Shown here: positions 14,212-38,061 of the stretch, in pieces
Numbering within the stretch: the stretch's first letter is position 1
Layout: every line of letters begins with the position of its first letter
Source: Escherichia phage fp01
Sequence record: NC_048731.1
Reading direction: 5' to 3' (one strand)
DNA length: 64,000 nt
The notes under the pieces: model-generated
Databases searched by the model: none
What the model saw: only the letters and a program-made list of their open reading frames with translations
What the model was told of the DNA's origin: nothing
Made by a program: the position numbers and the translations under genes

Positions 14212-14220
14212 GGAGGAATT

Positions 14221-14479: not shown

Positions 14480-14510
14480 AAAAGCCCGCGCTCTCGGAGG
14501 AAACGCGGGC
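14480..14510 (-). terminator. rho-independent terminator (minus strand) after the SPFH gene
   Basis: hairpin GCCCGCGCTCTCGGAGGAAACGCGGGC with A-run 14480-14483 on plus = U-run on the minus transcript. Confidence 0.55.
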
Positions 14511-14535
14511 TTGGTTCGAAGATTACGTGTAACTA

Positions 14536-15483: not shown

Positions 15484-15517
15484 ATATTTCCTTTGTTTTA
15501 GTTACAGTTAATAAAAT

Positions 15518-15592
15518 TGGCCGAGGTGACAGGATTCGAACCTGCATAAAGGAATTTAGAAGACTCCTGCCTCTCCCTTAGACTACACCCCG
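15518..15592 (-). tRNA. tRNA-Arg (anticodon TCT)
   Basis: acceptor CGGGGTG/CACCTCG, anticodon stem GGAGT/ATTCC with loop CTTCTAA, T-arm GCAGG-TTCGAAT-CCTGT, CCA encoded. Confidence 0.65.
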
Positions 15593-16094
15593 TTTAAGTA
15601 TTTTTAAGAACTCTCGTAAAAACTCTTAAAAATACAGACGATACCGGGAGAGTCATAAGTCTCACTCATTAAGTATTTCAAGACAAAATACGGTAACGTC
15701 TATTATTTTCCAGTTTAAGTCAGGGTGACTTAGTGGTTATGTCCTGCGGTATATTGAGGACTCGGTTAGGCTTGGGGTCATGACTTCCCGCCTTTTGCTG
15801 CTACTCAACAGGAATTATCGCGAATTACCTGTGCTATTGTGCACCATTAGTGACATCTCTCATGTCAGCATTTCCCACTTTGTGGATAGCTTGAAAAACT
15901 ACTCCGATATGGAGAAAGAACTTCACTATCCTAGAATACCTTCTAAAGTTCTTCTTTAGTCTGGACATAGTTAAATCGTAATAAAACTATTCAGCAGACT
16001 GGTTGGTTAGTCTGGAACCAACTACCGCGTGGTTTAGGCAGTGCGCAACTAACCTCGGAAGCTTTTACATTAAAAGCACCAGTTATCCAGTTCT

Positions 16095-16175
16095 TACCGA
16101 CCGTAGGATTCGAACCTACATCTTCCACCAGTTACGGCTTGATAATACCAATTATACTAGGACGGCAGTGTTACT
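16095..16175 (-). ncRNA. degenerate tRNA-like element (pseudo-tRNA)
   Basis: T-arm GTAGG-TTCGAAT-CCTAC and acceptor GCCGTCC/GGTCGGT are present, but the D-arm is aberrant and no anticodon stem can be drawn. Confidence 0.35.
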
Positions 16176-16389
16176 ACATAAGTGATTTCCACACCCCACT
16201 ATTTATAAATTAGAGAAGAGTTTAGGGGAGAGGTTTCAGACGCCTCATTTTACACGTTCTAGCCACTAACCGGGATTGCCGCCCCCTGTGTACTAGTTTT
16301 ACAACTAACCCACCGACTCTATTCAATGCGCTCCGGTTGGGATTCTGCACTCAGCGTAATCGGCTCGCTGTTCCCTAATTTATGAATAT

Positions 16390-16418
16390 AGTATACAGAA
16401 TTTAAAGGCATTTAGCAA
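16390..16418 (-). promoter_or_regulatory. T5-type promoter (minus strand, -10 TATACT) firing into the ORF-free region 15593-16389
   Basis: plus agtata 16390-16395, tagcaa 16413-16418, 17-bp spacer. Confidence 0.45.
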
Positions 16419-16426
16419 ATAAATTT

Positions 16427-16870
16427 TTAATTAAATTCGCCAGCAATCTGAGCAGCAGTACCACCATCATAACGCCCAGGAAATTCTTCCTTAATCGCTT
16501 TCATCAGCATACCTTTTGTAATTCCAGGGTTTAGCTTAACTAATTCTGCAAAGTATTTACGAATCTCAGTATCAGATAACTGAGGGGGCAGATACTCCTG
16601 CAACCACTTATTTAGAATGTATTCATACTGAGCAGACTGCAAGCTATAACTATCAAGATCTTGACCATGAAGTTTAGCTTTCATCTGGTTAATGCTTTTT
16701 AGTTGAGCTTTGAGATAAGACACAAACTGTTCAGAAGTGATGAAATCTTTATCAATACGCTGAAGATCCCCGATTATGGTCTGATAGCTTTTAGCGATTT
16801 CTTTATCAGAACCATTAAACTTAGAATCCTGCAAAGCTCTGCGCAAAACATCTAAAATATTTTCTTCCAT
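16427..16870 (-). CDS. GatB/YqeY-domain protein
   Basis: 147 aa; C-terminal ...GMLMKAIKEEFPGRYDGGTAAQIAGEFN resembles YqeY/GatB C-domains. Confidence 0.65.
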   Translation of the reverse strand: MEENILDVLRRALQDSKFNGSDKEIAKSYQTIIGDLQRIDKDFITSEQFVSYLKAQLKSINQMKAKLHGQDLDSYSLQSAQYEYILNKWLQEYLPPQLSDTEIRKYFAELVKLNPGITKGMLMKAIKEEFPGRYDGGTAAQIAGEFN

Positions 16871-17040
16871 TATTTCATTCCTAACGCCTGGTTAAAAGAT
16901 TGTTCTGTCATAACTGCTGAGACTTTGGCGAAATCAAACTTTTTAGGGTTTGTAGTGATTTCAGCAACGTTAGAAGTTTTAACAGTTTTCGTAGTACGAA
17001 TACCGCGGGTGTTAACACCAATAATTACAACTGATTTCAT
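16870..17040 (-). CDS. hypothetical small protein (56 aa)
   Basis: manual translation MKSVVIIGVNTRGIRTTKTVKTSNVAEITTNPKKFDFAKVSAVMTEQSFNQALGMK; stop overlaps the downstream ATG (TAATGG). Confidence 0.35.
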   Translation of the reverse strand: MKSVVIIGVNTRGIRTTKTVKTSNVAEITTNPKKFDFAKVSAVMTEQSFNQALGMK

Positions 17041-17071
17041 ATTTTGCTTCCTCTCATTAATTTATGGAAGT

Positions 17072-17100
17072 ATTATACGGAAATTTAAGTATTTAAGCAA
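17072..17100 (-). promoter_or_regulatory. T5-type early promoter (minus strand)
   Basis: plus attata 17072-17077, aagcaa 17095-17100, 17-bp spacer. Confidence 0.5.
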
Positions 17101-17108
17101 GTAAATTT

Positions 17109-17576
17109 TTAAGTTTTAGTGACAACAGGTTTATAGAATGTATGTCCCTTAATCTTAGTTGTTTTCTTAAATTTCTTTGTCCAGTAAGGTTTATCTTTAC
17201 CACTATGGAAGTATAGTGCTCCATATGTAGGATCTTGTGGTAAATCAACGTAGTATATCACTCTAGCTAAATTCTTAGCGGTTTGCCAAGCCTCATCAGT
17301 TTTATCAACTTTTGGTCTCTTAGATACCCAAGAGAACTGGTTAGACTGATATACTACTTTACAGTAGGAATCTGGGAATTTACCGGAGTTTACACGGTTT
17401 TTAGTAACATGTGCAATCGCCGTCATTCCCTTTATGCCCTCACCACGACTCTCGAAATAGATATTTTTAGCAATGCAATCTATTTCTTTTGCATCATGCG
17501 ATGCCTGACTACTAAAGCTGAAGGTAAGGGCAGCTACTAAAAGCAAAGCTGCCTTCATTCTTTTTACTCCTGCCAA
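17109..17576 (-). CDS. cell-wall hydrolase, SleB-like (Hydrolase_2 family), with signal peptide
   Basis: 155 aa; N-terminal signal peptide MKAALLLVAALTFSFSSQA; CIAKNIYFESRGEG...AIAHVTKNRV...YCKVVYQSNQFSW conserved blocks. Confidence 0.7.
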   Translation of the reverse strand: MAGVKRMKAALLLVAALTFSFSSQASHDAKEIDCIAKNIYFESRGEGIKGMTAIAHVTKNRVNSGKFPDSYCKVVYQSNQFSWVSKRPKVDKTDEAWQTAKNLARVIYYVDLPQDPTYGALYFHSGKDKPYWTKKFKKTTKIKGHTFYKPVVTKT

Positions 17577-17881
17577 TCATATTCAACACGATTGGGATTT
17601 TCTTTATACCCTAAGTCAAGCAAATCATTACGCATATTTTGCTTAGCTACTGGGTTCGAGGTTACTAGTACCACTTTCTTTGGTCTCTGCCCAAATTCTA
17701 AGAGTAAACGAAGAATTTGATAACCTTCCATACCATCTACAGCCAAGTCATTATCCATATAAACGAAATGGCCTGTGGTATCAGTTTTATTCAGAAACTC
17801 TACAGCGGCTTCTGGGGTTCGAATGATAATGTCCATTCCGTGAAGATTACGCACATCATCAATCAAAATATGAAAAGTCAT
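17564..17881 (-). CDS. hypothetical protein (receiver-like fold possible)
   Basis: ORF track 105 aa. Confidence 0.5.
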   Translation of the reverse strand: MTFHILIDDVRNLHGMDIIIRTPEAAVEFLNKTDTTGHFVYMDNDLAVDGMEGYQILRLLLEFGQRPKKVVLVTSNPVAKQNMRNDLLDLGYKENPNRVEYDWQE

Positions 17882-17911
17882 AATAGCCTCGTTTCATCAA
17901 TTTAAAAATAT

Positions 17912-17940
17912 ATTATACATATAATTTAGTAGATTAGCAA
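17912..17940 (-). promoter_or_regulatory. T5-type early promoter (minus strand)
   Basis: plus attata 17912-17917, tagcaa 17935-17940, 17-bp spacer. Confidence 0.5.
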
Positions 17941-18323
17941 ATACATTTTTAAATTGTGAAACTAGTAAACCGATAAACAGCCTAGAGGCGCCACAGGCCA
18001 TATCTTATGAGCCATGTACCTTTGATCTAGGGTTTGAATCATCAACGAATACTTTGCATCTTTTAGCTTTAGAAGTTTAGAAGTTTGAGTTCTTTAAACT
18101 TTTCAGCTTTCATACTTAAATGTTGATCTTTGAAGTTGTGTCGGTAATATCAACGACGCTTTGTTCTTACGTGTCAGCTTAAAAGGCTGGTGTAATAAAC
18201 ATAATCTCCAATAGATTATACTTTATAGTATGGTCAGCGGTCTTATTTAACCTCGTATTTCAACCGCTACTGCGAGGTAAGATGCTTGGGCTTTCGTCTA
18301 CCGATTTACTAGCTTTTAAATTA

Positions 18324-18962
18324 TTACTCTACTTCAATGAAGGTAGAGGCGTTAGACTCGGACAGAACAAAGTCAACATTTGTTGCAAAGTCCTGGTATT
18401 CCTCGTCATGCTGCTTAATCAGCTTCTCCAGTTCCAGCGGATCAATCAAGAATGGAGTATTCTTGAGTTCCAGCAGGTTGAGCTGCATTTTAACTTCATC
18501 TTCGGAAGTTTTCTTATCGCGGGTAGCCATGCTATCCTGCAAACGCTCATATTTAGCATCAAACTGTGCTTTCTGCGTATTAAACTTAACCGTAGCGGCA
18601 TGGAACTGCTTACGCATATTAGCCAGCAGTTGGGCTTTAAGTTCCATAGAACGCTTAGCTTCAATTGCTTCCGCAACAGTCATTTTACGAGAACCGATCT
18701 CAACTACTGTTTCCGCATTGCTCTTAATCAGAGCAGCTTTGATACGATCACGCTGGGACATCATATCCAGGAGAGATTGGAAATCTGCCTTAATACGAGC
18801 AGACAGATCGTCTACTTCGATTGCAGCGCCAACTACAACCTTATTTTTATCTTTACCTTCACCAACAGCGATCAGGAGTTGTTGTTCAGTAGCTTTACGG
18901 ATTTTAGCTTCCAGAGATTTGATAGTTGCCAGAGCGCGAGTTTTAGAGATACGAGTAGTCAT
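18324..18962 (-). CDS. hypothetical coiled-coil protein
   Basis: ORF track 212 aa; chosen over overlapping plus-strand ORFs because it fits the minus-strand gene string. Confidence 0.55.
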   Translation of the reverse strand: MTTRISKTRALATIKSLEAKIRKATEQQLLIAVGEGKDKNKVVVGAAIEVDDLSARIKADFQSLLDMMSQRDRIKAALIKSNAETVVEIGSRKMTVAEAIEAKRSMELKAQLLANMRKQFHAATVKFNTQKAQFDAKYERLQDSMATRDKKTSEDEVKMQLNLLELKNTPFLIDPLELEKLIKQHDEEYQDFATNVDFVLSESNASTFIEVE

Positions 18963-19015
18963 TATTTGCTTCCTTATATGAAGTTTGAGATTTGAATTTA
19001 TTTAAATTTGGTCTA

Positions 19016-19198
19016 TTACAGACCAATTGCCAGCAGAGTGCGCAGAACAGTATCATTACTGTTATCAATTTTAGGATTAGCACGATTTAGCAGATCAAAG
19101 ATTTTCTGGATACCTGATTGACGTTCAGCCATACGACGGATACCCAGATTACGAGTAGCTTTCTTACCATTTTTACGAACATTTTTAGATACTGGCAT
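19016..19198 (-). CDS. hypothetical small basic protein
   Basis: ORF track 60 aa. Confidence 0.4.
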   Translation of the reverse strand: MPVSKNVRKNGKKATRNLGIRRMAERQSGIQKIFDLLNRANPKIDNSNDTVLRTLLAIGL

Positions 19199-19238
19199 AT
19201 TTGTTTTCCTTTTATTGTTTTCTCAAATTTATGAATAT

Positions 19239-19267
19239 ATTATACAGAATTTTGGAGCCGGAAGCAA
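19239..19267 (-). promoter_or_regulatory. T5-type early promoter (minus strand)
   Basis: plus attata 19239-19244, aagcaa 19262-19267, 17-bp spacer. Confidence 0.5.
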
Positions 19268-19268
19268 A

Positions 19269-19970
19269 TCAAATTTTCATTTTTTCGATCATAGCTGCAA
19301 CACAATAGCTCTCAACTAAGGCATCAAATGCTGGGTCGTGCTTAACCGGGTAGATCCCATAACGAATAGTGTCCATCTTCTCCATTTTAGCTATTGCCCA
19401 GCTAATACCTTCGGTCTCTAGAGCCTTATAACTGTATCCAGCTTGCATCCAGAGATTACGAAGAGATCGAACATTACCCAAATTCCAGAATTTCCACGGA
19501 ACTACCTCTTCATTGGTTCCAGCATGGAATGTGTTTGCAGAGTAGATAGTCATATCAAACTCTGGGCCATTACCATAATACAAAGCATTTTCGCCTAGAG
19601 CCAACTCCATAATATTTTGAGCCATAGAGTAGGCAGCATAGTTTGAGCCTAATTTATTAGTGCAATGATGTTTACCATTTTGGAAGGCAATCAGTTTTGG
19701 ATTACGTTCCTTCATAGCTTCCATAATGTGAATAGCAGATGGGCTATGTTTAGCTTGATCCATCCAGAATGCTAGAGTAGATGCTGTAACTTTGGCACCA
19801 GAATTAAGCTGATCCTGCACATCCAAAGTAACAAATACTAGATCAGGGTCTTTATCAATTCCATGCATAGCCACAAAAGCGAATGAAGGCATTGCGATAT
19901 GAGTAGTACCACAATCTCCTGGAGTTCCCAGAGATTCGATATCTAGCATACCAAATGGTTTTACTTTCAT
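19269..19970 (-). CDS. DEDDh-type 3'-5' exonuclease (DnaQ/RNase T-like)
   Basis: 233 aa; MLDIESLGT (Exo I D-x-E) near N-terminus and HDPAFDA (Exo III) near C-terminus. Confidence 0.6.
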   Translation of the reverse strand: MKVKPFGMLDIESLGTPGDCGTTHIAMPSFAFVAMHGIDKDPDLVFVTLDVQDQLNSGAKVTASTLAFWMDQAKHSPSAIHIMEAMKERNPKLIAFQNGKHHCTNKLGSNYAAYSMAQNIMELALGENALYYGNGPEFDMTIYSANTFHAGTNEEVVPWKFWNLGNVRSLRNLWMQAGYSYKALETEGISWAIAKMEKMDTIRYGIYPVKHDPAFDALVESYCVAAMIEKMKI

Positions 19971-19998
19971 AACTTATCCTTTATTGTGTAGAAAACTA

Positions 19999-20220
19999 TT
20001 AAAGAGCTGTCTCTTTAATAGACTCCCACTTCTTGGGGTCTTTAAAACCAGGAAGCATATCCTCACTGACATCCCAGTTCTCTTCCATATAGAGGTCATC
20101 TAAGTCTAACTCATCCACTGCTAGATCCATTACCTCATGACTAGAAAGTCGTGTATAATCCCTAGCGGACTTATGAGTGCTAGCACGGTTAAAATCGTTC
20201 TTTGCTACAAAATTATGCAT
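19999..20220 (-). CDS. hypothetical protein
   Basis: ORF track 73 aa. Confidence 0.4.
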   Translation of the reverse strand: MHNFVAKNDFNRASTHKSARDYTRLSSHEVMDLAVDELDLDDLYMEENWDVSEDMLPGFKDPKKWESIKETAL

Positions 20221-20261
20221 AGTTTCTCCAAATAAGAGGGGCTTTCGCCCCCTGATTTAAA

Positions 20262-20477
20262 TCACTTGCCCAGCAGTTTAAGGATATTTTCCATAATAGT
20301 TTGGGCAGATTTTTCACTCTTGTTGGTTTCAGCCAACTTTAAAGCGAGTTCTTCCTGCTGTTTCTGAATATCAGCTGCGATTTTTTGATCAGCCTCAATA
20401 CGAGCTTGAAGCTCATCAGTGATAGTGGTAAAGGAAGCAACGATTTCAGTAACAGAACGTGGTTTCTTAGAGAACAT
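20262..20477 (-). CDS. hypothetical protein
   Basis: ORF track 71 aa. Confidence 0.4.
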   Translation of the reverse strand: MFSKKPRSVTEIVASFTTITDELQARIEADQKIAADIQKQQEELALKLAETNKSEKSAQTIMENILKLLGK

Positions 20478-20541
20478 AAAAAATATCCTTGATTAGTTAG
20501 AGAATTAGTAGATTGTAGGGGCTTCTGCCCCTATTTATCTA

Positions 20542-21057
20542 TTACTTCGCTTTACGCTTGCGAGCTGGTTTAGCAGATTTACGAGCAGAATCACCCGTGA
20601 ACTTAATGCCTACACCGTAACACAGAGCACGAACATTATCTTTAATATACTCTACGCCAAAGATATTTGGCTTAACAGAACCAAACTGTCCACGAGTATC
20701 ACGCAGTACATCTGCTGTTGGTTTACGCTTCTGGTTAACTGCCTTCTCATAGTCTTTCATAGACATACCATTACGAGGGAACAGTTCAGCCCCAGCGTTG
20801 AAGCTCAGGGAAACTGGGACAGATTTGTGGCCGTAATTTTCTACATACATAACCATTTTGTAGGATTTACGGGTGGCATTTTTAGCTTTAGGCTTCTGAC
20901 GAATCGGAGCCGGACTATTCAGTGCTTGCGCAGCCTGAGCATCGGTAGGATGCTTACGCAGGTGGCGTTCCAGACGAGCTTTGCGATTAGCCTCGGTCTG
21001 TGGGAAAGTTTTAACTGCCGGAGCTGCTTGAGTTTTTGCGTTTTTCTGCTTAGCCAT
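20542..21057 (-). CDS. hypothetical basic (Lys/Arg-rich) protein
   Basis: ORF track 171 aa; basic termini. Confidence 0.5.
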   Translation of the reverse strand: MAKQKNAKTQAAPAVKTFPQTEANRKARLERHLRKHPTDAQAAQALNSPAPIRQKPKAKNATRKSYKMVMYVENYGHKSVPVSLSFNAGAELFPRNGMSMKDYEKAVNQKRKPTADVLRDTRGQFGSVKPNIFGVEYIKDNVRALCYGVGIKFTGDSARKSAKPARKRKAK

Positions 21058-28310: not shown

Positions 28311-29063
28311 TTACACCTTCCCCATGTCTTTAAAAATATCATAGAATGCTTTAGACTCGACAGAACGAACGTTATCAATCAATTCGATCATTGAGAATGG
28401 GGCATTTTCGTATTTCTCATAGACTTCCATAAGGAGTGCTAGACCTGAGTCACCTTTAATGTCTTTCTGAGCTATATCTCCGCAGATAATTAAACGGCAG
28501 TCTTGTCCTACACGAGTTAGGAGACAAATCATTGCCTCAACGGAAATATTCTGAGCTTCATCGACAATTACATAGGAGTTGTTGAAAGTTCTGCCACGAG
28601 CATGTTCTACAGCCAAAAATTTAATTTTCTGACGTTCGACATATCCTTTATATGCATGATCGCCGATGGCCCATTTCATACCATCAGCTATTGGCTCCAA
28701 CCAAGGCTCTAGCTTTTCCGCTAGATCACCAGGAAGCATACCAAGAGACTTACCCAGAGGTTCATTAGGACGTACGAGGATCACTTGCTCAATATCTGAG
28801 TGAAGGTCTACGAGTTCCTGAGCTGCAAGAACGGACGGAATAAAGGTTTTACCAGTACCTGGCTCACCGATACCCACAGTCACTGTGTTGTTCTTGATCA
28901 TATTGATATATGATTTTTGCTCGCGGTTTTTACCTACTAGGGATTTAGCAACTGGATTAGCGTAATCATTAGAAAAATCAGCCTGAATTACGTTATTCTC
29001 ATACTTGTTGCCACGCTTTCTTGAACCATTGCGGTTCTCTCTTTTTTGACGTGCTTTTCCCAT
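28311..29063 (-). CDS. phoH: PhoH-like ATPase
   Basis: Walker A GEPGTGKTF, Walker B VIVDEAQN; start set at ATG 29061-29063 with AGGAG SD 8 nt upstream. Confidence 0.9.
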   Translation of the reverse strand: MGKARQKRENRNGSRKRGNKYENNVIQADFSNDYANPVAKSLVGKNREQKSYINMIKNNTVTVGIGEPGTGKTFIPSVLAAQELVDLHSDIEQVILVRPNEPLGKSLGMLPGDLAEKLEPWLEPIADGMKWAIGDHAYKGYVERQKIKFLAVEHARGRTFNNSYVIVDEAQNISVEAMICLLTRVGQDCRLIICGDIAQKDIKGDSGLALLMEVYEKYENAPFSMIELIDNVRSVESKAFYDIFKDMGKV

Positions 29064-29136
29064 AAATAACACTCCTATAGTGTACTTCGCTAACAGAGGA
29101 TCAACAAAAAGATCTTGTTTATCAACTTACAAATAT

Positions 29137-29165
29137 ATTATACCAATATATACAGTAAAAAGCAA
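29137..29165 (-). promoter_or_regulatory. T5-type promoter (minus strand) for phoH
   Basis: plus attata 29137-29142, aagcaa 29160-29165, 17-bp spacer. Confidence 0.5.
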
Positions 29166-29357
29166 CTACAATTTTAAATAAGCCTATGATATTGCATTTA
29201 AATAAAAAATTTGCTTGCTTTTAACGTGAGATGTGTGATACTAGATAATCATTTTATATCGCGTACACGAGTGCGTGATTATACAATTTTTAATAGAGAT
29301 TGGCAAATAAAATTTTTTGACTCAGATCATGTTACAGAACTTTATAGTAAAATATTG

Positions 29358-29386
29358 TTGACATCCGCCCTCGAATGAGTTATAAT
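29358..29386 (+). promoter_or_regulatory. consensus sigma70 promoter (TTGACA-17-TATAAT) for nrdD
   Basis: TTGACA 29358-29363, TATAAT 29381-29386; GAAGGAGAG SD before ATG 29416. Confidence 0.6.
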
Positions 29387-29415
29387 AGTAGTCTTAGTTA
29401 GAGAAGGAGAGTATA

Positions 29416-31290
29416 ATGAATCGCAATGAAGAACTAAAATATAAAGAAATGCAGGCGTTAATTAGAAACTGCAAAGAGATTATCGAAGGGTCAGCAGACG
29501 AAGAGCTGCTGTTTAATAATGCCAATAAACCCTCAGAACGTTTTCCTACACAAAGGGATATGCTTGCAGGTGAGTTGAGTAAGTATCTGATTCTAGAAGA
29601 AATGCCAATTCAGATTCGAAATGCTCATATGATTGGGGATATTCATTTCCATGATGCTGATTATGCTGCATTAGGCATGACTAACTGTTGCCTGGTAGCT
29701 CTGGAAGATATGTTAAAGAATGGTATGAAGGTTGGTAATGCTGAAATTAGCACTCCAAACTCTATCACTACTGCGGCGGCTATCACTGCTCAGATTATCA
29801 CTCAAGTTAGCTCCCATCAGTATGGTGGTACTTCTGTAGATCGCCTTGATGAAGTATTAGCCCCTTATGTTCGTAAATCATATGATAAAAATCATGCGTT
29901 TGCAAAACGTTGGACTAAGGATGAAGCCAAAGCATCCGTAATGGCTACGGAGATGACTGAAAAAGAAGTCTATGACGCTTGTCAGGGTTTAGAATATGAA
30001 ATCAATACCATGTTCAACTCTAATGGTCAGAGTCCATTTATTACCTTTGGTTTTGGTCTAGGAACTTCTTGGGAAGCACGTCTAGTACAGAAAGCAATAC
30101 TGAAAGTACGCATGGATGGTTTAGGTATCAATAAACGTACAGCTATCTTCCCGAAACTGGTATTTGTACTTCGTGATGGCGTAAATATGAAACCAGGAGA
30201 TGTTAATTATGACATCAAGAAGTTAGCTATGAAATGTACTGCTGAACGTATGTATCCAGATTATATCAGCTATGACAAGGTTGTAGAAGTTACTGGAGAC
30301 TACAAAGTTTCTATGGGCTGCCGTTCATTCCTAGCTGCTACAGAAGATGGTGAAACTGCCGGCCGTAATAACTTAGGTGTTGTTTCTGTAAACTTGCCTA
30401 GAATTGCTATCGAAGCTGAGGGAAATATTGACCTATTCTTTGATTTGCTTGAGCTACGTGTGGATACAGCGTTAAAAGCATTGGAGTGGAGAGTTGATCG
30501 CTTAAAATACATTCAAGCTAAAGCTGCACCTATCCTCTATATGTCAGGAGCCTTTGGGTTACGCTTGGAGCCTGATGAGTATGTATTCGATCATTTCTAT
30601 AACCGTGCTTCTGTATCTCTAGGGTATATTGGTTGCCATGAAATGCTACAGTTTATGTTTGGCAAAGATGTAGACACAATGTCCGAGACCTGCATCAAGT
30701 TTGTTCAGCGTGTATTGCAGTACATGCGGGATAGAGTCGATCAGAAGAAGGAAGAAACTAAGTTAGGTTATAGCCTGTATGCTACACCATCAGAATCCCT
30801 ATGTGACCGTTTTTGTCGTCTAGACCGTGAATATTTCCCAGAGCATGAAGATATTCTGTCCAAAGGATACTACACTAACTCGCACCACCTTGATGTAGAA
30901 CGTAAAGTTGCTCCCAATGTGAAATTTGATTATGAATCTAACTTTACTCCGATTGCTTCTGGTGGGTGCATTTCCTATGTAGAACTACCGGATATGAAAC
31001 GATTCCCAGATGCACTGGAATGGGTTATTAATTATGCTGCTAGTAAGGTTCATTACTTCGGTATTAATACCCCAGTGGATTCTTGTGGTAAATGTGGATT
31101 CTTAGGTGAAACAATAGCATCCGAAGATGGATTTAAGTGCCCTATCTGTGGTAATCATGACCCCGAAACTCTTGAAGTAACTCGTCGAGTTTGTGGGTAT
31201 CTTGGAAATCCGGGTGCTCGTCCATTTAACCCCGGCAAACAGCACGAGGTTATGGGCAGAGTGAAACATCAGGATATTCGAGCTAAATAA
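29416..31290 (+). CDS. nrdD: anaerobic ribonucleoside-triphosphate reductase (class III)
   Basis: 624 aa; C-terminal Zn-ribbon CGKCGF...CPICG followed by glycyl-radical motif TRRVCGYLG. Confidence 0.95.
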   Translation: MNRNEELKYKEMQALIRNCKEIIEGSADEELLFNNANKPSERFPTQRDMLAGELSKYLILEEMPIQIRNAHMIGDIHFHDADYAALGMTNCCLVALEDMLKNGMKVGNAEISTPNSITTAAAITAQIITQVSSHQYGGTSVDRLDEVLAPYVRKSYDKNHAFAKRWTKDEAKASVMATEMTEKEVYDACQGLEYEINTMFNSNGQSPFITFGFGLGTSWEARLVQKAILKVRMDGLGINKRTAIFPKLVFVLRDGVNMKPGDVNYDIKKLAMKCTAERMYPDYISYDKVVEVTGDYKVSMGCRSFLAATEDGETAGRNNLGVVSVNLPRIAIEAEGNIDLFFDLLELRVDTALKALEWRVDRLKYIQAKAAPILYMSGAFGLRLEPDEYVFDHFYNRASVSLGYIGCHEMLQFMFGKDVDTMSETCIKFVQRVLQYMRDRVDQKKEETKLGYSLYATPSESLCDRFCRLDREYFPEHEDILSKGYYTNSHHLDVERKVAPNVKFDYESNFTPIASGGCISYVELPDMKRFPDALEWVINYAASKVHYFGINTPVDSCGKCGFLGETIASEDGFKCPICGNHDPETLEVTRRVCGYLGNPGARPFNPGKQHEVMGRVKHQDIRAK

Positions 31291-31295
31291 GCTAA

Positions 31296-31330
31296 TCAGC
31301 CGGGTTGCTAGTCGACCTGGCTTTTATTTT
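31296..31330 (+). terminator. terminator-like hairpin plus T-run after nrdD
   Basis: AGCCGGGTTGCTAGTCGACCTGGCT hairpin followed by TTTTATTTTATTT. Confidence 0.45.
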
Positions 31331-31332
31331 AT

Positions 31333-31361
31333 TTGCTTTCAGCCAAAAATTTATATATAAT
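31333..31361 (+). promoter_or_regulatory. T5-type early promoter (plus strand)
   Basis: TTGCTT 31333-31338, TATAAT 31356-31361, 17-bp spacer; downstream AGATTTATAAATTTGAGAGGAG block. Confidence 0.55.
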
Positions 31362-31389
31362 AGATTTATAAATTTGAGAGGAGAAAGAT

Positions 31390-31770
31390 ATGGAATTAAA
31401 ACCCTATATAGTTGAATCTACATGTGGTAGTTTCCATCTGGGTGTGGATGATATTGCTGAGGCTGTCTTTGCTGCCACAGGTGATTACTCGCATATAGAG
31501 GGTGTTGCATACCCTACCATTATTGGCGATTGGGTGGGAACAAATCTAGATGTATCGCCTTATAACCCATATTGCTTGTTTGATGAAGATAGAGATGAAG
31601 TAAAATGTAATCTTGAATTTGTGTATAATAGAGTGTTAAAAGTATACCAACGTAGCCCCAATGGGTACGAAGATATTACTTGGAGTATTAAACAGTATCT
31701 TAAAGATATATACTCTAGTTTTTCTGACGAAGACCTAGAAACAGTTGCAGTGGAGTTTAATAATGACTAA
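31390..31770 (+). CDS. hypothetical protein
   Basis: ORF track 126 aa; no radical-SAM CxxxCxxC motif, so not an NrdG-type activase. Confidence 0.5.
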   Translation: MELKPYIVESTCGSFHLGVDDIAEAVFAATGDYSHIEGVAYPTIIGDWVGTNLDVSPYNPYCLFDEDRDEVKCNLEFVYNRVLKVYQRSPNGYEDITWSIKQYLKDIYSSFSDEDLETVAVEFNND

Positions 31771-31969
31771 GAATGTGAAACATCTTAAATATCGCTTAAT
31801 TTACAATGGACGTATGGAAACAGAAGATCTGGCCCAATTAGCTATTAATTCTAATGAGGTTACAGTGCGTGCGCTGGCAATTGAAAAGTTGCGTGCCTCT
31901 TATGAAAATCGTGTTATGGAACTAGAGGAGAAACTTTATGGCATTCTCGAAGCCGATGCTACCAGATAA
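31745..31969 (+). CDS. hypothetical protein
   Basis: ORF track 74 aa. Confidence 0.4.
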   Translation: MQWSLIMTKNVKHLKYRLIYNGRMETEDLAQLAINSNEVTVRALAIEKLRASYENRVMELEEKLYGILEADATR

Positions 31970-32159
31970 GGGTTTAAACGCTGCTTTGGAAAACGCATTA
32001 ATGCAGCACTGGGAAACTGGCTATAAGGATGGTGTTGAATCCTGTGCTACTATGCTAGAAGTTATTGCTAATACCTTAATGGAGAAAGGCAATAAAGAAT
32101 TAGCTGAGCTATTAGACAGTATTGGGCAAAATTTCAGAGAACAGGTGAAAAATGCGTAG
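31938..32159 (+). CDS. hypothetical protein
   Basis: ORF track 73 aa. Confidence 0.4.
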   Translation: MAFSKPMLPDKGLNAALENALMQHWETGYKDGVESCATMLEVIANTLMEKGNKELAELLDSIGQNFREQVKNA

Positions 32160-32988
32160 ATTAATTATTATTAGCGGTGCGGGTTTGAGTGTTGAAAGTG
32201 GTGTACGAGCTTTTCGTACTGATACTGCTAGTGGTAAAGCATTGTGGGATGATTATGATCTAGAAGAAGTATGTAATATTCATGCCTTTCGTGGTAACTT
32301 CTATCATAAAACCCATATGTTTTACAACAAGCGTCGTGAAGAGCTAAAAACTGTTGAACCCAATCTTGCGCATTTGCGTATTGGTGAATGGTATAAACAA
32401 TATCCAGGTCAGGTAGTAAACTTGACTACCAACGTTGATGACCTTATTGAGCGTGCTGGCGTTCCAAATAGTGACATTCTGCACATTCACGGATATTTAA
32501 AAGAGGTTGTTGTAGCTGATAGCTACAATAGTAGCAATAAACGGATTATTGATGTAGGATACAATTCTATTGATCCAGATGATTATAAATGGGTTAAACC
32601 TAATGTAATCTTCTTTGGGGAGCATGCTCCAGCGTATGCAGAAATGTACAATGTTTTTGATGGTATTACCAGTCAAGATATGATCATTGTGGTTGGTTGC
32701 TCTAACCAAGTAATTAACTTCTACTGGGAATTATTTCCTGTTCTTAATTTGAATGCTGCCAAACTAATGGTAGTTAACTACTATGATAGTGCCCTCGCAG
32801 CGGAACCGGGCTATCAAGGTATGACTCGTAGTGAGATGTACCAACTGGAAGAACGTGGTATCCCTTACTGGAGTAAAGGTGCGGTAGATGCTTTTAGTGA
32901 CCCTGATTTTATTGCTCGTGTAGAAGCTCATTTAGAGGGTAGACCTTATGTGTCGAGAAGCAAGGGAAACAGATATGTCCATAGTTAA
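32152..32988 (+). CDS. Sir2-family (sirtuin-like) NAD-binding protein
   Basis: 278 aa; GAGLSVESGVRAFR N-terminal motif, TTNVDDL block and HIHGYL (catalytic His); no CxxC...CxxC zinc-binding cluster. Confidence 0.7.
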   Translation: MRRLIIISGAGLSVESGVRAFRTDTASGKALWDDYDLEEVCNIHAFRGNFYHKTHMFYNKRREELKTVEPNLAHLRIGEWYKQYPGQVVNLTTNVDDLIERAGVPNSDILHIHGYLKEVVVADSYNSSNKRIIDVGYNSIDPDDYKWVKPNVIFFGEHAPAYAEMYNVFDGITSQDMIIVVGCSNQVINFYWELFPVLNLNAAKLMVVNYYDSALAAEPGYQGMTRSEMYQLEERGIPYWSKGAVDAFSDPDFIARVEAHLEGRPYVSRSKGNRYVHS

Positions 32989-33157
32989 ACCTGTGTATAC
33001 ACATCCTGATGATATATTTGTATGGGCGGACGGTAGTTGGTGCTATCGCTGTGAGCTGTGGGAAATGGATTATAAATCCGATGACTATGGTGTTATATAT
33101 GTTGATACGGTTGAGTATGATACGTTCTTAGAAAGGAACAAAAATGGAAATAAGTAA
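32948..33157 (+). CDS. hypothetical protein
   Basis: ORF track 69 aa. Confidence 0.35.
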   Translation: MCREARETDMSIVKPVYTHPDDIFVWADGSWCYRCELWEMDYKSDDYGVIYVDTVEYDTFLERNKNGNK

Positions 33158-33650
33158 TACTCCAATTATTTTTCTAGACATTGATGGGGTGCTCAATTCG
33201 AGCATCTCCCACCATCATGCACCTGATAATGAAAAGATTTTCTTTGGAAGTGACTGGGTTTTCAAACCCCTTCTCAAGGCTTTTCAGGATTTTATTCGTC
33301 CTTCTCCGATAATGATTGTTGGAGTATCCTCATGGTTCTCTGTCAGGAATGAGATGGAGAACGTTCAGATTATGACCGGATTAGGTCTTATCGATCGTTT
33401 TCTTGGTACAACGGATTTTACTGGGGGTGGATTATCTAGAGGTAATTCTGTTCTTCGTTTCGTTGAAAAGCATAAGCTCAAACATTGGTGTGTGCTTGAT
33501 GATGCTGGTGCTATGATGTATCAGTATCCAACGGTTATAGTCAACGGTAGGACTGGGATAAATCTTCAAGATTTAAAAGCTGTTAGCTATATGCTAGAAT
33601 TTAGCCCAGATCTTGAAATGTGTAAATCCTTACAACAATTTAAGGTGTAA
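33144..33650 (+). CDS. HAD-superfamily phosphatase-like protein
   Basis: 168 aa; HAD motif I IFLDIDGVLN near N-terminus, later VLDDAG acidic motif. Confidence 0.6.
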   Translation: MEISNTPIIFLDIDGVLNSSISHHHAPDNEKIFFGSDWVFKPLLKAFQDFIRPSPIMIVGVSSWFSVRNEMENVQIMTGLGLIDRFLGTTDFTGGGLSRGNSVLRFVEKHKLKHWCVLDDAGAMMYQYPTVIVNGRTGINLQDLKAVSYMLEFSPDLEMCKSLQQFKV

Positions 33651-33652
33651 AT

Positions 33653-34081
33653 ATGTTCAATAATGTATTCTCTAAAGAAGCTAACCCAATTTTGGTTAAC
33701 TTTTGGCGTACCCTCCCGGCTAGCCTGTATAATGAGGCTATTAACTCTTTGAAAATATGGTGTGAGAATAACGAAATCTCCTTTGCTTTTAAAGATGATA
33801 TTGATGAGGCCCCTTGTATTGGTTTAATTGTTCAGGTAGAGGAGGGTCTTGAAGAGATTGTCGGCTGGAAAGAGTTAGATGAAATGGGCTTAGTTTTTGC
33901 ATTAAACTATAAGCTGTTTATGCCTGCTAAGCATCGCCTCGTTGTTAACTATAAAACTAGTGAATCTCCTGGTTTTCAGGTTAATGAACGTTATGGTTGG
34001 TCTTACTCACCGGAAGAAGTAAATGAGGGGATTCAGAAACTTCGACGTTTCGGGTATATGATCCCAGGTTTAACTGCTTAA
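33653..34081 (+). CDS. hypothetical protein (paralog A)
   Basis: 142 aa; shares PCIG...W.EL..MGL..ALN..LF.P...PG motifs with the next gene. Confidence 0.5.
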   Translation: MFNNVFSKEANPILVNFWRTLPASLYNEAINSLKIWCENNEISFAFKDDIDEAPCIGLIVQVEEGLEEIVGWKELDEMGLVFALNYKLFMPAKHRLVVNYKTSESPGFQVNERYGWSYSPEEVNEGIQKLRRFGYMIPGLTA

Positions 34082-34090
34082 GGAGGCAAA

Positions 34091-34483
34091 ATGGAACAAG
34101 TATATTGGCGTCAGATTGACCCTAGTTTGGTAAAGCGTGCGGAAAAGCTGCTACAACGTTGGTTGGGAGTAAGACAAGCCTCCTTCACTTTTCCGGAGCA
34201 GCAAACGGATGATCCCTGCATTGGCGTTTTCCTGTCTGGGTATGCCGGGGAATGGGAGATGGACTGGAATGAATTGTCCGCTATGGGTTTAATTGTTGCC
34301 CTAAATTTCTCTTTGTTCCATCCACGTGGTTTTGCCATATGTCGTGTGCCGGATGATGGCTGTTCGCCACATCTTTTACAGGTGGAAGACGATATTTGGG
34401 AGTACACTCCAGGTATTCTCAAAGAAGCTAAAGAACAGTTAAACAGTGTTGGGATCTATGTTCCGGGATTAAATGATGAATAA
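34091..34483 (+). CDS. hypothetical protein (paralog B)
   Basis: 130 aa; tandem paralog of 33653-34081; GGAGG SD upstream. Confidence 0.5.
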   Translation: MEQVYWRQIDPSLVKRAEKLLQRWLGVRQASFTFPEQQTDDPCIGVFLSGYAGEWEMDWNELSAMGLIVALNFSLFHPRGFAICRVPDDGCSPHLLQVEDDIWEYTPGILKEAKEQLNSVGIYVPGLNDE

Positions 34484-34667
34484 AGAATATTGGGTATGTT
34501 ATGGTAAAATTAAAAAGTGGAATAAGGGTCAACTTTCAGCTAAGCAAGTAAAATTTATGGCAAGATATTTGACTGATCCCACTTTCGATATTAAAAAGTT
34601 AAGTAGCTCAAACCGCGCTATTATACTTAAATTTGCTAGTACTATTCGTGGTCTTTTTTATGATTAA
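34473..34667 (+). CDS. hypothetical protein
   Basis: ORF track 64 aa. Confidence 0.4.
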   Translation: MMNKEYWVCYGKIKKWNKGQLSAKQVKFMARYLTDPTFDIKKLSSSNRAIILKFASTIRGLFYD

Positions 34668-34743
34668 TCCGTATAACCGAGTCATTTTGACTCGGTTTTC
34701 TCTATGCTCAAAGACACTGATAGCACCTTTGGGAAAAATTTAC

Positions 34744-34772
34744 TTGCATGATGCCCAAAATCTTGATATAAT
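34744..34772 (+). promoter_or_regulatory. T5-type early promoter (plus strand)
   Basis: TTGCAT 34744-34749, TATAAT 34767-34772 with TG extension; downstream ATTTATATTGAATTGAGAG block. Confidence 0.55.
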
Positions 34773-35073
34773 ATTTATATTGAATTGAGAGACATTAGTA
34801 AAAATTGATTTTGCTAATTTTTCTTGTTTACAATCCGCGATACGGAACAGTTAGGCTGCCCCATTAAGGGTTGTTTTAACTGTTACGTGTTAGTTTTTAA
34901 ACAAATAGTTAATAGAATACTTAGCGATCTGCGTCCCATAGGAACCCTGGTAAGGCCTCGAAGCAACCTAGTATGAGGTGGTTGTGAAGTGAGATGGGAG
35001 GAGTGAAAAACTACCGAGACGTGATTCTGTAAGTTATATTGCATCTAGTATGAGCTAGTACATGAAGCATTAG

Positions 35074-38061
35074 GTGAGCAAATCTGGCTTAGCGGCCATC
35101 CTCAAGGATTTGTGCGGTATAATGAGGCAGCAGCGCAGCGTGAAAGTGGAAGTTGCCACCCCACTTCAGTATTTGCGATTAATTGTTGAGAAATTGACAG
35201 TAACAGTTGTTCTATTCTTTCTGAATAGTCCTAAAGAAAACTTATTTCATTTCCAACACAGGAGTATTGTTGTGTTCTCAATCCTACAAGGTCATGCAGG
35301 ATTTCATCGCGATTTAGCCACTGGCATTTGGCGAGAAGTTAAAGCAGAAGACTATCTTTTTGCTAAAAGATTTTCCTCAAAGCATCCTGAAGGTAAACCA
35401 GCTTCAATGCCCTTCAAGTTTGATGTAATTGATGAAATTGATCCTCAAACCCTAGTAGAAATGCTCCCCCTTATGAGACGTTTAACGTCTGACCCTCATA
35501 TCGTTGCGGTACGAGGACGATGTCTTGCACCCAAAAATAATGTGCGACGTAAGAAGGGCAACTTTAATGTATCTAACCCAAGTCATATAATTGCAATGGA
35601 CGTGGATGGTATTGTAGATACAGGTGGTTGTAACAAGTTTGATCTTGTTGGCATGGCTCGACATATTATTAGGATGTTAAATAGTATTAGTGAGGATATG
35701 TTTCCTCTTGATGCAGGGTTTATTGCTCATGCATCGTCTTCGGCTGGGCTAAAACCAGGTATCCGAATGCACTTAATACTAGAATCTAATGTTAAAGTAA
35801 CTCAGGGTCAAATCAAATTCTTATTTACATCTATCAACGAAAGTAGTAGACAAAAGTATGGCTTTGATATTGCCGACTTAGCTTATTACTCTTCCGTACA
35901 GCTCCATTATTTTGCAGATCCGTTGTTTACCGATGGTATAGTAGATCCGTTTAAAGCGGAGGGTGCTTCACGTCTGGTATTTGTTAAGGGTTCTAAAGTA
36001 AATTTACCCAATAATCTGGTTGACTATGAAACAACTAGAGGTGAGTTTAAAGAAGAGTTCTACTCTTTACTCGACCAAATTAAGGGTAAAAAAGCTGCCT
36101 CTGATAAAGTAGAAGAAACTATCAGCGAACTAGAAGAAGCTGAGGATGGAGTGTATCTACGTATTATTCCTAAACTCTATCACAGGGCTTTGGAGGATGG
36201 TGTTGATTTTGCATGGTTAGAAAAAGAAATCCGTCCAGCCTTATCAGAATATATTGCAACTAAAGATAATAGTCGTAATATTCAAGACTACTTTAATAAT
36301 GGTCGTAAACAGGCTCTAAAAGCGTTTGTTAATAATTCTAAACGTGATATACCGGATGTTTTAAAAGGTATTCCACTTAAAAAGCTAGAAACTAACTCTT
36401 TAGAGACTGATAACTTCTTGAAATTAAATACTGTACCACCAGAAGGTTATATGACTTTTGTAAAAGCAAGTTTAGGTACAGGTAAAACTACAGCGGTTGT
36501 GCGTTGGTTAGATTCAGGAGTTATTAAAGGTAATTTCTTAGCAATTACCAATACTCGAGCACTGGTATCTTCAAATGCTAAGAAATTTAGTGCAGGACAA
36601 TATGATAAGTCTGTAGATATGCTTAATTTTAAGCGTGGTGCTATTGACCGTATGTCCACAACTATTCACTCTTTGCATAAGTTCAAGAGTTTTATTGGTC
36701 AAATCGATGCAATCTTTATCGATGAATGTGATGCTGTAATGAATGACCTATTGTTCGCCCCTGTTGTTAAACAACGTCGTGAATGTATTCAGGTTCTTCG
36801 GGATATTCTTGCAACTGCAAAAATCATTATATTATCTGATGGTGATATTAGTGCAGAAACAATTGAAGCATATGGTTCTTTGATTGAGTTTGATAAACCG
36901 GTTGCATTTTATAATCATCACCGTAAAATGCTGTCAAAAGCTCATGCTTACGAGTTCCCTGACGAATCCAGTATTTGGGTTGCACTTCAGACTTCTCTAG
37001 AGATGGGTGAGAAATCTATTCTGGTATCTGACTGTGGGCCGGATGAACTGAATGAGAAGGGCATGGCGTTGCGTCGTAATACGGGTGCATTAGTTAAGGA
37101 AATCCACTCAAACTCTACGTCTGATGTAGATATTAGACGTATTCTGGATTACACAACTAATGAGCTAATTGACCAACAAATTGATTGCTTATTATGTAGT
37201 CCATCCGTAACGAGTGGTGTTGACTTTAACTATTTTGATAACGTATTCGTTATCACTAGAACTAGTAACCAAGCGCCAAACATGCGTTTCCAAGCAATCA
37301 GGCGCGACCGTGGTGCTCAGAACATTTATTATTTTATTGATAAATCTACGAGTGGATTCTCCGCAGGTTCTGAGCAATATAACATTGATGAAGGTTGGCT
37401 GGAGTTAGCACAGCAATTATACGCACGTCGAAGAGAGCTGGAATCTAGGAACTATACTAGTACTTTACGTTATTATTTGCTTGATCAAGGTGCAACTATT
37501 GATATTTTCAGTGAAAGCTGGGGAACTATCGAAGGTGCAGGAAAAGAGTATACGGAAGAGCGAATCAAAGCTATATTGTATTCAACTCCTGATTATTGTG
37601 CTCCACGTCATGCAGATGCGTATGAAGCTAAACTACTTCTTGTTCGCTATTATCATCTTGAATCTATTAAAGATGTAACAGTTGAGCATGTTGAACAATA
37701 TATCAAGGATAAACCGAATGATCGAGCAGCATTCTTCCATAAAATGCACGAGATGTTCTGGGAAGATATTAAGAAGTGTTCAAATGTCACTATCAAACCA
37801 TTCATAGAAGCTCTGAAAGGTAAGAAGAAAGATTTCTTCCTTAAAACAGGTCAGAGTGCTAACCCAAAATATGCCAGAATGTATCTTGGTATGATGGGTA
37901 TTGGTAAGGATATGAACACGGAGAATATTGTAGACTGGTACAGAACTTATTGTAAAATCGAGTGTATGCCAATCCCGTATAAGTTTATGACTGATGAGGA
38001 GAAACATATGCATGATGAAGCAATGGCAGAGCTAGGTGCTAGAAATGACAGTGAAGAATAA
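35074..38061 (+). CDS. large P-loop NTPase (helicase/origin-binding-like replication protein)
   Basis: 995 aa; Walker A ASLGTGKTTAV and Walker B IFIDECDAV; ORF-track start is GTG and the true start is uncertain. Confidence 0.65.
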   Translation: MSKSGLAAILKDLCGIMRQQRSVKVEVATPLQYLRLIVEKLTVTVVLFFLNSPKENLFHFQHRSIVVFSILQGHAGFHRDLATGIWREVKAEDYLFAKRFSSKHPEGKPASMPFKFDVIDEIDPQTLVEMLPLMRRLTSDPHIVAVRGRCLAPKNNVRRKKGNFNVSNPSHIIAMDVDGIVDTGGCNKFDLVGMARHIIRMLNSISEDMFPLDAGFIAHASSSAGLKPGIRMHLILESNVKVTQGQIKFLFTSINESSRQKYGFDIADLAYYSSVQLHYFADPLFTDGIVDPFKAEGASRLVFVKGSKVNLPNNLVDYETTRGEFKEEFYSLLDQIKGKKAASDKVEETISELEEAEDGVYLRIIPKLYHRALEDGVDFAWLEKEIRPALSEYIATKDNSRNIQDYFNNGRKQALKAFVNNSKRDIPDVLKGIPLKKLETNSLETDNFLKLNTVPPEGYMTFVKASLGTGKTTAVVRWLDSGVIKGNFLAITNTRALVSSNAKKFSAGQYDKSVDMLNFKRGAIDRMSTTIHSLHKFKSFIGQIDAIFIDECDAVMNDLLFAPVVKQRRECIQVLRDILATAKIIILSDGDISAETIEAYGSLIEFDKPVAFYNHHRKMLSKAHAYEFPDESSIWVALQTSLEMGEKSILVSDCGPDELNEKGMALRRNTGALVKEIHSNSTSDVDIRRILDYTTNELIDQQIDCLLCSPSVTSGVDFNYFDNVFVITRTSNQAPNMRFQAIRRDRGAQNIYYFIDKSTSGFSAGSEQYNIDEGWLELAQQLYARRRELESRNYTSTLRYYLLDQGATIDIFSESWGTIEGAGKEYTEERIKAILYSTPDYCAPRHADAYEAKLLLVRYYHLESIKDVTVEHVEQYIKDKPNDRAAFFHKMHEMFWEDIKKCSNVTIKPFIEALKGKKKDFFLKTGQSANPKYARMYLGMMGIGKDMNTENIVDWYRTYCKIECMPIPYKFMTDEEKHMHDEAMAELGARNDSEE

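Follow-up and report, generated by a model that had tools for sequence, protein, structure and literature searches.

What does a bacteriophage gain from a sirtuin, and does the phosphatase encoded closely behind it serve the same end? This question is raised by Escherichia phage fp01 (sequence record NC_048731.1), of which we analysed a stretch of 64,000 nucleotides (one strand, 5′ to 3′), hereafter the window. The window belongs to the genome of a T5-like phage: its DNA from 31300 to 34500 is 95-97% identical to many Tequintaviruses, HK6, EC148 and T5_ev212 among them, and 445 phage records were matched in total. Two of its genes concern us here:

32152-32988, + strand: sirtuin of the T5.102 family, 278 amino acids (aa); Pfam SIR2, phrog_2162, NCBIfam, CobB structure, AlphaFold
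33144-33650, + strand: HAD_SAK_2 phosphatase, T5.105 homologue, 168 aa; PF18143, E=7.4e-20

Judging from its conserved residues, the sirtuin probably cleaves nicotinamide adenine dinucleotide (NAD+) and moves an anionic group of a macromolecule onto ADP-ribose, and gene context tentatively suggests that this group is the 2′-phosphate of RNA. Part of the subject is familiar. The T5 reference record has listed T5.102 as 'Sir2 (NAD-dependent deacetylase)' ever since its deposition, and the neighbourhood of a sirtuin and a HAD of the Swiss Army Knife (SAK) type was published by Iyer, Burroughs, Anantharaman and Aravind (2022, Viruses 14:1977, PMC9503650). Annotation and literature already cover the gene, the absence of zinc ligands and the pairing with the HAD gene, and the window adds nothing to these.

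A relative of CobB with a complete NAD site

The original prediction, made from the letters alone, recognised a 278-aa product with sirtuin hallmarks, and this holds. The open reading frame (ORF) at 32152-32988 carries GAGLSVESGVRAFR at residues 9-22, TTNVDDL at 92-98 and HIHG with His113; it matches the Pfam SIR2 profile (PF02146) over positions 1-178 of 180 (88.2 bits, cut-off 24; E=8.2e-25) and phrog_2162, 'Sir2' (E=5.5e-121). Its sequence makes its identity as a T5.102-family sirtuin of T5-like phages near certain, and we found the family in 1010 phage records, a spread well beyond chance.

Across 30 homologues (50-87% identity), G9-A10-G11-x-S13, F21-R22, N94, D96, H113-G114, F155-G156-E157, the GxS motif (G182-x-S184) and N209 are invariant. 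These residues align one to one with G48-G50, F60, R61, N130, D132, H147, F190-E192, G214, S216 and N240 of Escherichia coli CobB, whose sequence was taken from the K-12 genome, so that the catalytic residues, the conservation of which had been left to be checked, are in place residue for residue. Y58, R61 and C41, likewise invariant in the 30 phage homologues, align with CobB Y92, R95 and A76. The Tyr/Arg pair of SIRT5 and CobB binds the succinyl carboxylate and defines desuccinylase specificity; the phage protein has this class III signature, a Tyr-x-x-Arg pair together with a small residue at the position of SIRT5 Ala86 and CobB A76. Read through the alignment, the protein shows a complete putative NAD site, the catalytic His and a presumptive anion-binding pair. 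Two motifs are changed. The Gln of TQN, which contacts NAD in sirtuins, is replaced by Thr93 throughout the phage clade (TTN in 30 of 30 aligned homologues), and the peptide-clamp motif VYP has become VIN, with V and I invariant and the last residue N or D among the homologues.

The closest relatives are deacylases. E. coli CobB is the top sequence match in the PDB (1s5p, E=4e-18), followed by Sir2Af1, SIRT5 and others, and the best NCBIfam models are CobB-type deacylases (E=5.7e-29). Identity to CobB is only about 25%, and the CobB equivalog cut-offs were missed widely (100.8 bits against 243, and 91.4 against 320); on sequence grounds the protein is best described as a relative of CobB and not as its equivalog. 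An AlphaFold model built from 30 homologues (pLDDT 87) found CobB first in Foldseek (E of about 5e-18; TM-score 0.85 normalised to CobB), then Sir2Af1, Sir2Tm and SIRT5. By sequence, profile and predicted fold, the phage sirtuin thus appears closest to the classical class III deacylases. It shares with CobB and SIRT5 the fold, the NAD-binding motifs, the catalytic His, the FGE loop, the anion-binding pair and the small residue at A76, and differs from them in its low identity, its replaced zinc ligands, TTN and VIN, and in being phage-borne.

The original prediction had instead placed the protein nearer to prokaryotic SIR2-like NAD-utilising domains than to classical deacetylases. This assignment fell: only PF02146 is matched, CobB and SIRT5 are nearest, and the class III Tyr/Arg pair is invariant. 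The profile checks proposed at the time matched SIR2 to the sirtuin and HAD_SAK_2 to the HAD protein, whereas SIR2_2 did not match the sirtuin (Pfam profiles, E up to 0.1). PADLOC sirtuin-type models gave no match either (E up to 0.1), a lone REase_I match being at chance level (E 0.045), and no structure of a defence-type sirtuin stood within the Foldseek top 50. We therefore rejected a defence-type SIR2 NADase. ThsA, DSR1/2, Sir2-HerA and SPARSA have the SIR2 superfamily fold in common with the phage sirtuin and likewise use NAD+; unlike them, it stands alone with 278 aa, lacking any sensor or partner domain.

Zinc ligands lost from a retained ribbon

The zinc site of sirtuins is structural, not catalytic, and loss of its ligands therefore does not exclude membership of the superfamily. 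The absence of a CxxC...CxxC module, which the original prediction had reported, is confirmed, but its further claim that the ribbon is missing is not. The protein has two Cys (C41 and C183), no CxxC and no Cys between H113 and F155, and the four zinc ligands are present in none of the 30 aligned homologues. The segment of the small domain from HG to FFGE nonetheless measures 44 residues, compared with 43-48 in zinc-containing relatives, and AlphaFold predicts strands in it at 114-122, 131-134 and 147-152. We rejected a deletion of the zinc ribbon since length and predicted strands are kept and the (I/V)GY motif of the phage sirtuins is common to zinc-bearing relatives. According to the model, the ribbon is retained and only its four Cys ligands are lost.

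A profile search against 1.84 billion cluster representatives supplied the relatives, and the 150 best were examined for motifs. Among these 150, TTN goes with at most one Cys in the small-domain segment (31 sequences) and TQN with CxxC...CxxC or at least three Cys (about 64 sequences), while a few intermediates combine TTN or TMN with zinc cysteines. Given that zinc-bearing relatives carry the (I/V)GY motif of the phages and that the length of the segment is constant, the phage clade is a derived branch of a class III-like family in which the zinc ligands were replaced.

That the zinc site is lacking was noticed earlier for Vibrio phage sirtuins (phiSt2, phiGrn1 and KVP40), with T5 among the listed carriers of the gene (Skliros et al., 2016). 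As here, those proteins were modelled on CobB and lack the zinc ligand; they keep the clamp Pro as INP, whereas the T5 type has VIN. The same study described the NAD salvage genes of these Vibrio phages. One Vibrio phage homologue in our set lacks the Cys ligands and is 41% identical to the window protein over the aligned part. In Vibrio phage D525, topoisomerase II is encoded just 3′ of the sirtuin, with no HAD gene within 8 kb.

The neighbouring HAD phosphatase

The HAD-like hydrolase was correctly placed two genes 3′ of the sirtuin by its DIDGVLN motif (residues 12-18), and both genes belong to one co-directional array. HAD_SAK_2 (PF18143), described in Pfam as 'HAD domain in Swiss Army Knife RNA repair proteins', matches the protein over its full length (positions 1-138 of 139; 72.2 bits, cut-off 27.5), and all HAD catalytic motifs are present: motif I (D12-x-D14), II (S62-S63) and IV (D119-D120) are invariant or nearly so, and R99 is invariant. 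The predicted structure has no cap domain, as in other cap-less HADs such as the phosphatase domain of T4 Pnkp, MDP-1 and Scp1/Fcp1; MDP-1 and Scp1 are its best structural matches, and the CTD protein phosphatases Scp1 and Fcp1 are both among the top ones. Cap-less HAD phosphatases usually act on macromolecules. The family was found in 499 phage records.

The HAD gene is widely mislabelled as 'Sir2 (NAD-dependent deacetylase)', both in RefSeq T5 (T5.105) and in many phage records ('Sir2 x2'). In addition phrog_18062, which carries the mislabel 'Sir2', matches the C-terminal half of the HAD (E=6e-58). Sirtuin-HAD fusion ORFs such as that of phage Bas34, described below, may have seeded this error.

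Gene neighbourhoods across phages

We re-derived neighbourhoods independently, drawing on 58 loci of IMG/VR, on public phage records and on four contigs from metagenomes. PhoH, NrdD, sirtuin, HAD, two DUF7415 proteins and a helicase follow one another in all 24 Tequintavirus and all 4 Epseptimavirus loci, and T5 itself has the same order as the window. T5 has two small ORFs between sirtuin and HAD where the window has one, and the sirtuin of the window has a slightly longer C-terminal tail. The locus corresponds to the T5.102 or SP15-type neighbourhood, with the same family and gene order; its sirtuin is 94% identical to that of T5, and its HAD is 97% identical to that of SP15, the published prototype phage and a close relative. 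A phage-clade sirtuin, a SAK-type HAD and no Macro domain in the array agree with type 3 (SP15-like) of Iyer et al. (2022). Pectobacterium phage My1 keeps the T5-like order with a HAD of no more than 43% identity, and in two divergent contigs the order is reversed to NrdD, HAD, x, sirtuin.

In some other lineages the sirtuin lies near an RNA ligase gene. In 13 Vequintavirinae, Mydo and rV5-type loci the array comprises, by Pfam assignment, a metallophosphoesterase, an Rnl1 RNA ligase, cREC, an AAA_33 kinase, the sirtuin and a DNA ligase, with Prs-like and Nampt-like (NARP1-like) genes about 5 kb from the sirtuin. Such NAD-salvage genes (Prs-like, Nampt-like) lie at most 7 kb from the sirtuin in 11 loci. 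On a 608-kb jumbo-phage contig, Rnl1 stands two genes 5′ of a sirtuin that is only 36% identical, and on another contig Nampt is directly 5′ of the sirtuin. HAD_SAK_2 genes also occur in Aeromonas, Morganella and Serratia phages with no sirtuin nearby. In Aeromonas phage Aeh1 the gene sits between td and nrdA.1, with denA and rnlA following (rnlA three genes 3′ of HAD), and one of the three contigs of the Serratia phage ChuuTotoro group described below holds an array of Rnl1, kinase and DNA ligase with a 101-aa ORF, and no sirtuin, at the position that the sirtuin has in Mydo.

How tight is the pairing? Between Tequintavirus and Epseptimavirus (loci L048-L051 against 28311-38061 of the window), the flanking PhoH, NrdD, HAD and helicase proteins are 90-98% identical, except for NrdD at 60% in one of the four Epseptimavirus loci. 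The Epseptimavirus sirtuin is 52% identical to that of the window and has an insertion of about 30 residues, while the HAD is at 90%; the DUF7415 proteins (65-77%) and the small ORF (53-59%) are intermediate. Since the sirtuin stands at 52% between flanks of 90-98%, and that of the window is nearer to the Mydo sirtuin (62%), the sirtuin allele was exchanged in place between the sister genera, while the HAD was retained. We rejected an obligate sirtuin-HAD pair on three grounds: the families differ in spread (1010 against 499 records), each occurs alone, and their divergence is discordant (52% against 90%). Sirtuin and HAD genes are genuinely paired in T5-like phages; they do not co-evolve.

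Proposed chemistry and substrate

Returning to the question of what the sirtuin does, we consider it likely, from the conserved residues, that it cleaves NAD+ and transfers an anionic group of a macromolecule to ADP-ribose. The enzyme would bind NAD+, and an oxygen of the anionic group would displace nicotinamide at C1′ of the ribose while the Tyr58/Arg61 pair holds the negative charge of the substrate. His113 would activate the ribose 2′-OH, the adduct would be resolved, and the group would leave on ADP-ribose.

Which group this might be is a more tentative matter. In sirtuins as in Tpt1/KptA, a substrate oxygen attacks C1″ of the ribose, after which the ribose 2″-OH attacks the electrophilic centre; that the two reactions are chemically parallel is our own inference. 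From gene context we lean, with rather less than even confidence, towards an RNA 2′-phosphate removed in the manner of Tpt1/KptA, because this context recurs in at least three independent lineages and the peptide cleft is changed clade-wide. The departures from a plain deacylase are the lost zinc ligands, TQN to TTN and VYP to VIN. The sirtuin would strip the 2′-phosphate from damaged tRNA or RNA ends, yielding ADP-ribose cyclic phosphate. The cap-less HAD would then take off the remaining terminal phosphate, or dephosphorylate the by-product ADP-ribose phosphate. Removal of an RNA 2′-phosphate by a KptA-like phage sirtuin was proposed in section 3.7.3 of Iyer et al. (2022; PMC9503650). The likeness to Tpt1/KptA is confined to this proposed job, the NAD+-dependent removal of the phosphate as ADP-ribose cyclic phosphate. 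Membership of that family was rejected, given that Tpt1/KptA has the ADP-ribosyltransferase (ART) fold and the phage sirtuin a Rossmann fold.

Several observations weigh against an RNA substrate. We know of no sirtuin with a demonstrated activity on a nucleic-acid phosphate, the solved relatives among the PDB sequence and Foldseek matches are all lysine deacylases, and the RNA-repair role of HAD_SAK_2 is itself a prediction. A literature search found no published experiments on any phage sirtuin. Searched with the Mydo and rV5 proteins, the 64-kb window contains no Rnl1-type ligase, kinase or metallophosphoesterase, which would leave an RNA-repair pathway in T5 incomplete unless host enzymes contribute; among Salmonella phage records, in which T5-like phages abound, Rnl1 is matched in only 15, against about 270-290 with sirtuin or HAD. 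The link to the HAD is confined to T5-like phages, as HAD is absent beside the sirtuin in all non-T5-like loci, and it is missing from Sugarlandvirus-type phages and one further lineage, which retain the sirtuin and DUF7415 genes. Phapecoctavirus-type and several other loci have uninformative neighbours. The allele swap argues against a co-adapted, physically interacting pair, though not against a common pathway. Finally, in some phages NAD-rebuilding genes adjoin HAD_SAK_2 with no sirtuin nearby: in Serratia phage ChuuTotoro and two related metagenomic phages of about 150 kb, HAD_SAK_2 lies directly 5′ of a Prs-like/NAPRTase-like pair (L008, 9980-13196; L071/L073 and L072) that resembles the NARP1 NAD+-rebuilding pathway. 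As the gene precedes this pair without a sirtuin, there are hints that the HAD perhaps processes ADP-ribose phosphate instead of an RNA end.

A natural deletion in phage Bas34

Escherichia phage SelmaRatti (Bas34 of the BASEL collection; MZ501103.1; locus L074, 2501-2950) carries an in-frame fusion of sirtuin residues 1-103 to HAD residues 117-168 (the HAD start being approximate), joined at an 'AG' microhomology. The deletion takes out sirtuin His113 and HAD motif I, that is, both active sites. Because Bas34 is viable on laboratory E. coli K-12, sirtuin and HAD are accessory and dispensable there. Bas34 recurs in recent papers: among Tequintaviruses it alone is restricted by the P2 OLD tRNase, it is also sensitive to PARIS and to the NADase systems PsAvs2 and Vesta, and it was employed in work on PANGU. 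The authors of those papers attributed the tRNase sensitivity to missing tRNA genes; the genome of Bas34 is also smaller. Bas33, another T5 relative, is PARIS-sensitive too and is rescued by one phage tRNA. None of the papers on the defence sensitivity of Bas34 mentions the sirtuin-HAD deletion; its coincidence with that sensitivity is a lead from one confounded case, not evidence.

A broader proposal follows the same line: the zinc-free phage sirtuins would be no protein deacylases but the first nucleic-acid sirtuins, taking 2′-phosphates off cleaved tRNAs, while the HAD would complete the RNA end or convert ADP-ribose phosphate to ADP-ribose from which NAD+ is rebuilt. The two would act as an accessory counter-measure to RNA-targeting immunity, and their loss would add to the sensitivity of Bas34. 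Taken as a whole we regard this as unlikely.

The gene array in the window

The sirtuin and HAD genes are surrounded by the following features:

31298-31322, + strand: terminator-like hairpin after nrdD; ten-pair stem, then a T-run
31390-31770, + strand: 126-aa protein, T5.100 homologue, first gene of the array; phrog_11748, E=2e-72
31745-31969, + strand: small ORF, T5.101 homologue, start codon uncertain; phrog_5236, E=1e-45
31938-32159, + strand: 73-aa small ORF, its stop overlapping the sirtuin start by 8 nt; phrog_5827, E=7e-31
32948-33157, + strand: 69-aa small ORF between sirtuin and HAD; phrog_5116, E=8e-30
33653-34081, + strand: DUF7415 paralogue a, T5.106 homologue; PF24187, E=5e-36 in two stretches; phrog_2502
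34091-34483, + strand: DUF7415 paralogue b, T5.107 homologue; PF24187, E=1e-31
34473-34667, + strand: 64-aa ORF that overlaps the end of the second DUF7415 gene and stops just before the closing hairpin
34675-34697, + strand: terminator-like hairpin closing the array; ten-pair stem

Three small ORFs, the sirtuin, the 69-aa ORF, the HAD and the two DUF7415 paralogues are thus co-directional, with stop and start codons that overlap or abut (DUF7415 paralogue a begins 3 nt past the HAD stop), and the two hairpins bound the array. The layout is identical in T5, where it lies in the early-gene region. The first hairpin probably marks the start of the downstream transcription unit; the T5 record annotates a terminator and a promoter at the equivalent place, between nrdD and T5.100, and a terminator after T5.107. 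In a simple scan for the sigma-70 consensus, no strong promoter came up in the interval from nrdD to the array's first ORF, where T5 has its annotated one. The T5.100 homologue, which has no Pfam family match, sits 5′ of the sirtuin in only some Tequintavirus loci, and the T5.101 homologue is kept there in Tequintavirus and Epseptimavirus loci. In Tequintaviruses the gap between sirtuin and HAD holds zero, one or two small ORFs, the HAD starting 805 to 1311 nt from the sirtuin start. The 64-aa ORF has no annotated counterpart in the T5 reference record.

Each DUF7415 paralogue consists of two DUF7415 repeats. These genes come after the sirtuin in all T5-like lineages, including those without HAD, and homologues of the C-terminal half adjoin nrdD/nrdG in T4-like Klebsiella phages and lie just 3′ of rnlA in Aeromonas phage Aeh1. 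We found neither a solved relative nor literature for DUF7415.

Elsewhere, the window contains 23 tRNA genes, clustered at 3428-15592 (- strand) as is typical of T5-like phages; phage-encoded tRNAs are known to counter tRNA-cleaving defences. Three further genes were recognised on the - strand:

19269-19970, - strand: protein with an Rv2179c-like 3′-5′ exoribonuclease domain
14536-15483, - strand: SPFH/Band 7 protein
20542-21057, - strand: DUF7022 protein

Alternative explanations

The strongest alternative to RNA 2′-phosphate removal is a lysine deacylase like CobB and SIRT5, which would act early in infection on acylated proteins of host or phage, taking off acetyl groups or, with greater likelihood, succinyl or malonyl ones, and so retune metabolism or replication, with the HAD and DUF7415 genes as mere neighbours. 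We hold this account to be nearly as probable as the RNA reading. It accords with the NCBIfam deacylase models (E=5.7e-29), with CobB 1s5p as the top sequence match (E=4e-18), and with CobB, Sir2Af1 and SIRT5 at the head of the Foldseek matches. The pair that defines desuccinylases is invariant, with its small residue at the CobB A76 position, and the lack of co-evolution between sirtuin and HAD also speaks for it. It is also the standing annotation of T5.102, and Skliros et al. (2016) read the Vibrio phage homologues alike. However, the protein scores far under every CobB equivalog cut-off (e.g. 91 against 320 bits), and the clade-wide changes hit elements that shape the peptide cleft (zinc ligands, VYP to VIN) as well as the NAD-contacting Gln, now Thr. 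Moreover, a plain deacylase leaves unexplained why unrelated phage lineages recurrently place this gene in arrays with RNA ligase, kinase and cREC.

Less probable by far is counter-defence through the NAD pool, in which the sirtuin, with or without the HAD, would degrade NAD+ or a NAD-derived immune signal, or ADP-ribosylate a host defence protein, and so blunt NAD-based immunity, as the original prediction had speculated. An accessory, dispensable sirtuin would suit this role, as the natural in-frame deletion of Bas34 illustrates, and so would the restriction of Bas34 by NADase (PsAvs2, Vesta) and tRNA-targeting (OLD, PARIS) systems. Exchange of an allele between conserved flanks is a pattern common for conflict genes, and in other phages HAD_SAK_2 is directly 5′ of NARP1-like NAD-rebuilding genes. 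Yet the sirtuin resembles no model of a defence-type SIR2 NADase, and consuming NAD would deepen its depletion instead of easing it. The Bas34 correlation comes from a single phage and is confounded by the smaller genome and the missing tRNAs; Bas33, whose sirtuin-HAD status was not checked, is PARIS-sensitive as well and needs a single phage tRNA for rescue. T5-like phages that counter NAD depletion use a different characterised module, NARP3 (NadR and PnuC), which was absent from the ten ORFs tested at window positions 12,005-21,057.

A protein mono-ADP-ribosyltransferase like class M SirTM, modifying a host protein without deacylation, is very improbable: sirtuin chemistry permits ADP-ribosyl transfer, the altered peptide-cleft motifs would suit a changed acceptor, and Iyer et al. 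(PMC9503650) regard most non-CobB sirtuins as ADP-ribosyltransferases, but the array has no Macro domain of the kind present in characterised sirtuin ADP-ribosyltransferase systems, and its closest relatives belong to the class III deacylases rather than to class M.

Implications

More than 1000 sequenced phage genomes carry this sirtuin family, including the model phage T5 and many therapeutic candidates. Two by-products of the analysis are the recognition of Bas34 as a natural double-knockout phage and of the wide mislabelling of the HAD gene as 'Sir2'. If the plain reading is true, T5-like phages would encode a CobB-like deacylase that retunes the acylation of host proteins. If instead the sirtuin takes part in RNA repair, sirtuin chemistry would extend from acyl-lysine to RNA phosphate, and phages would have a new answer to tRNA-cleaving defences.

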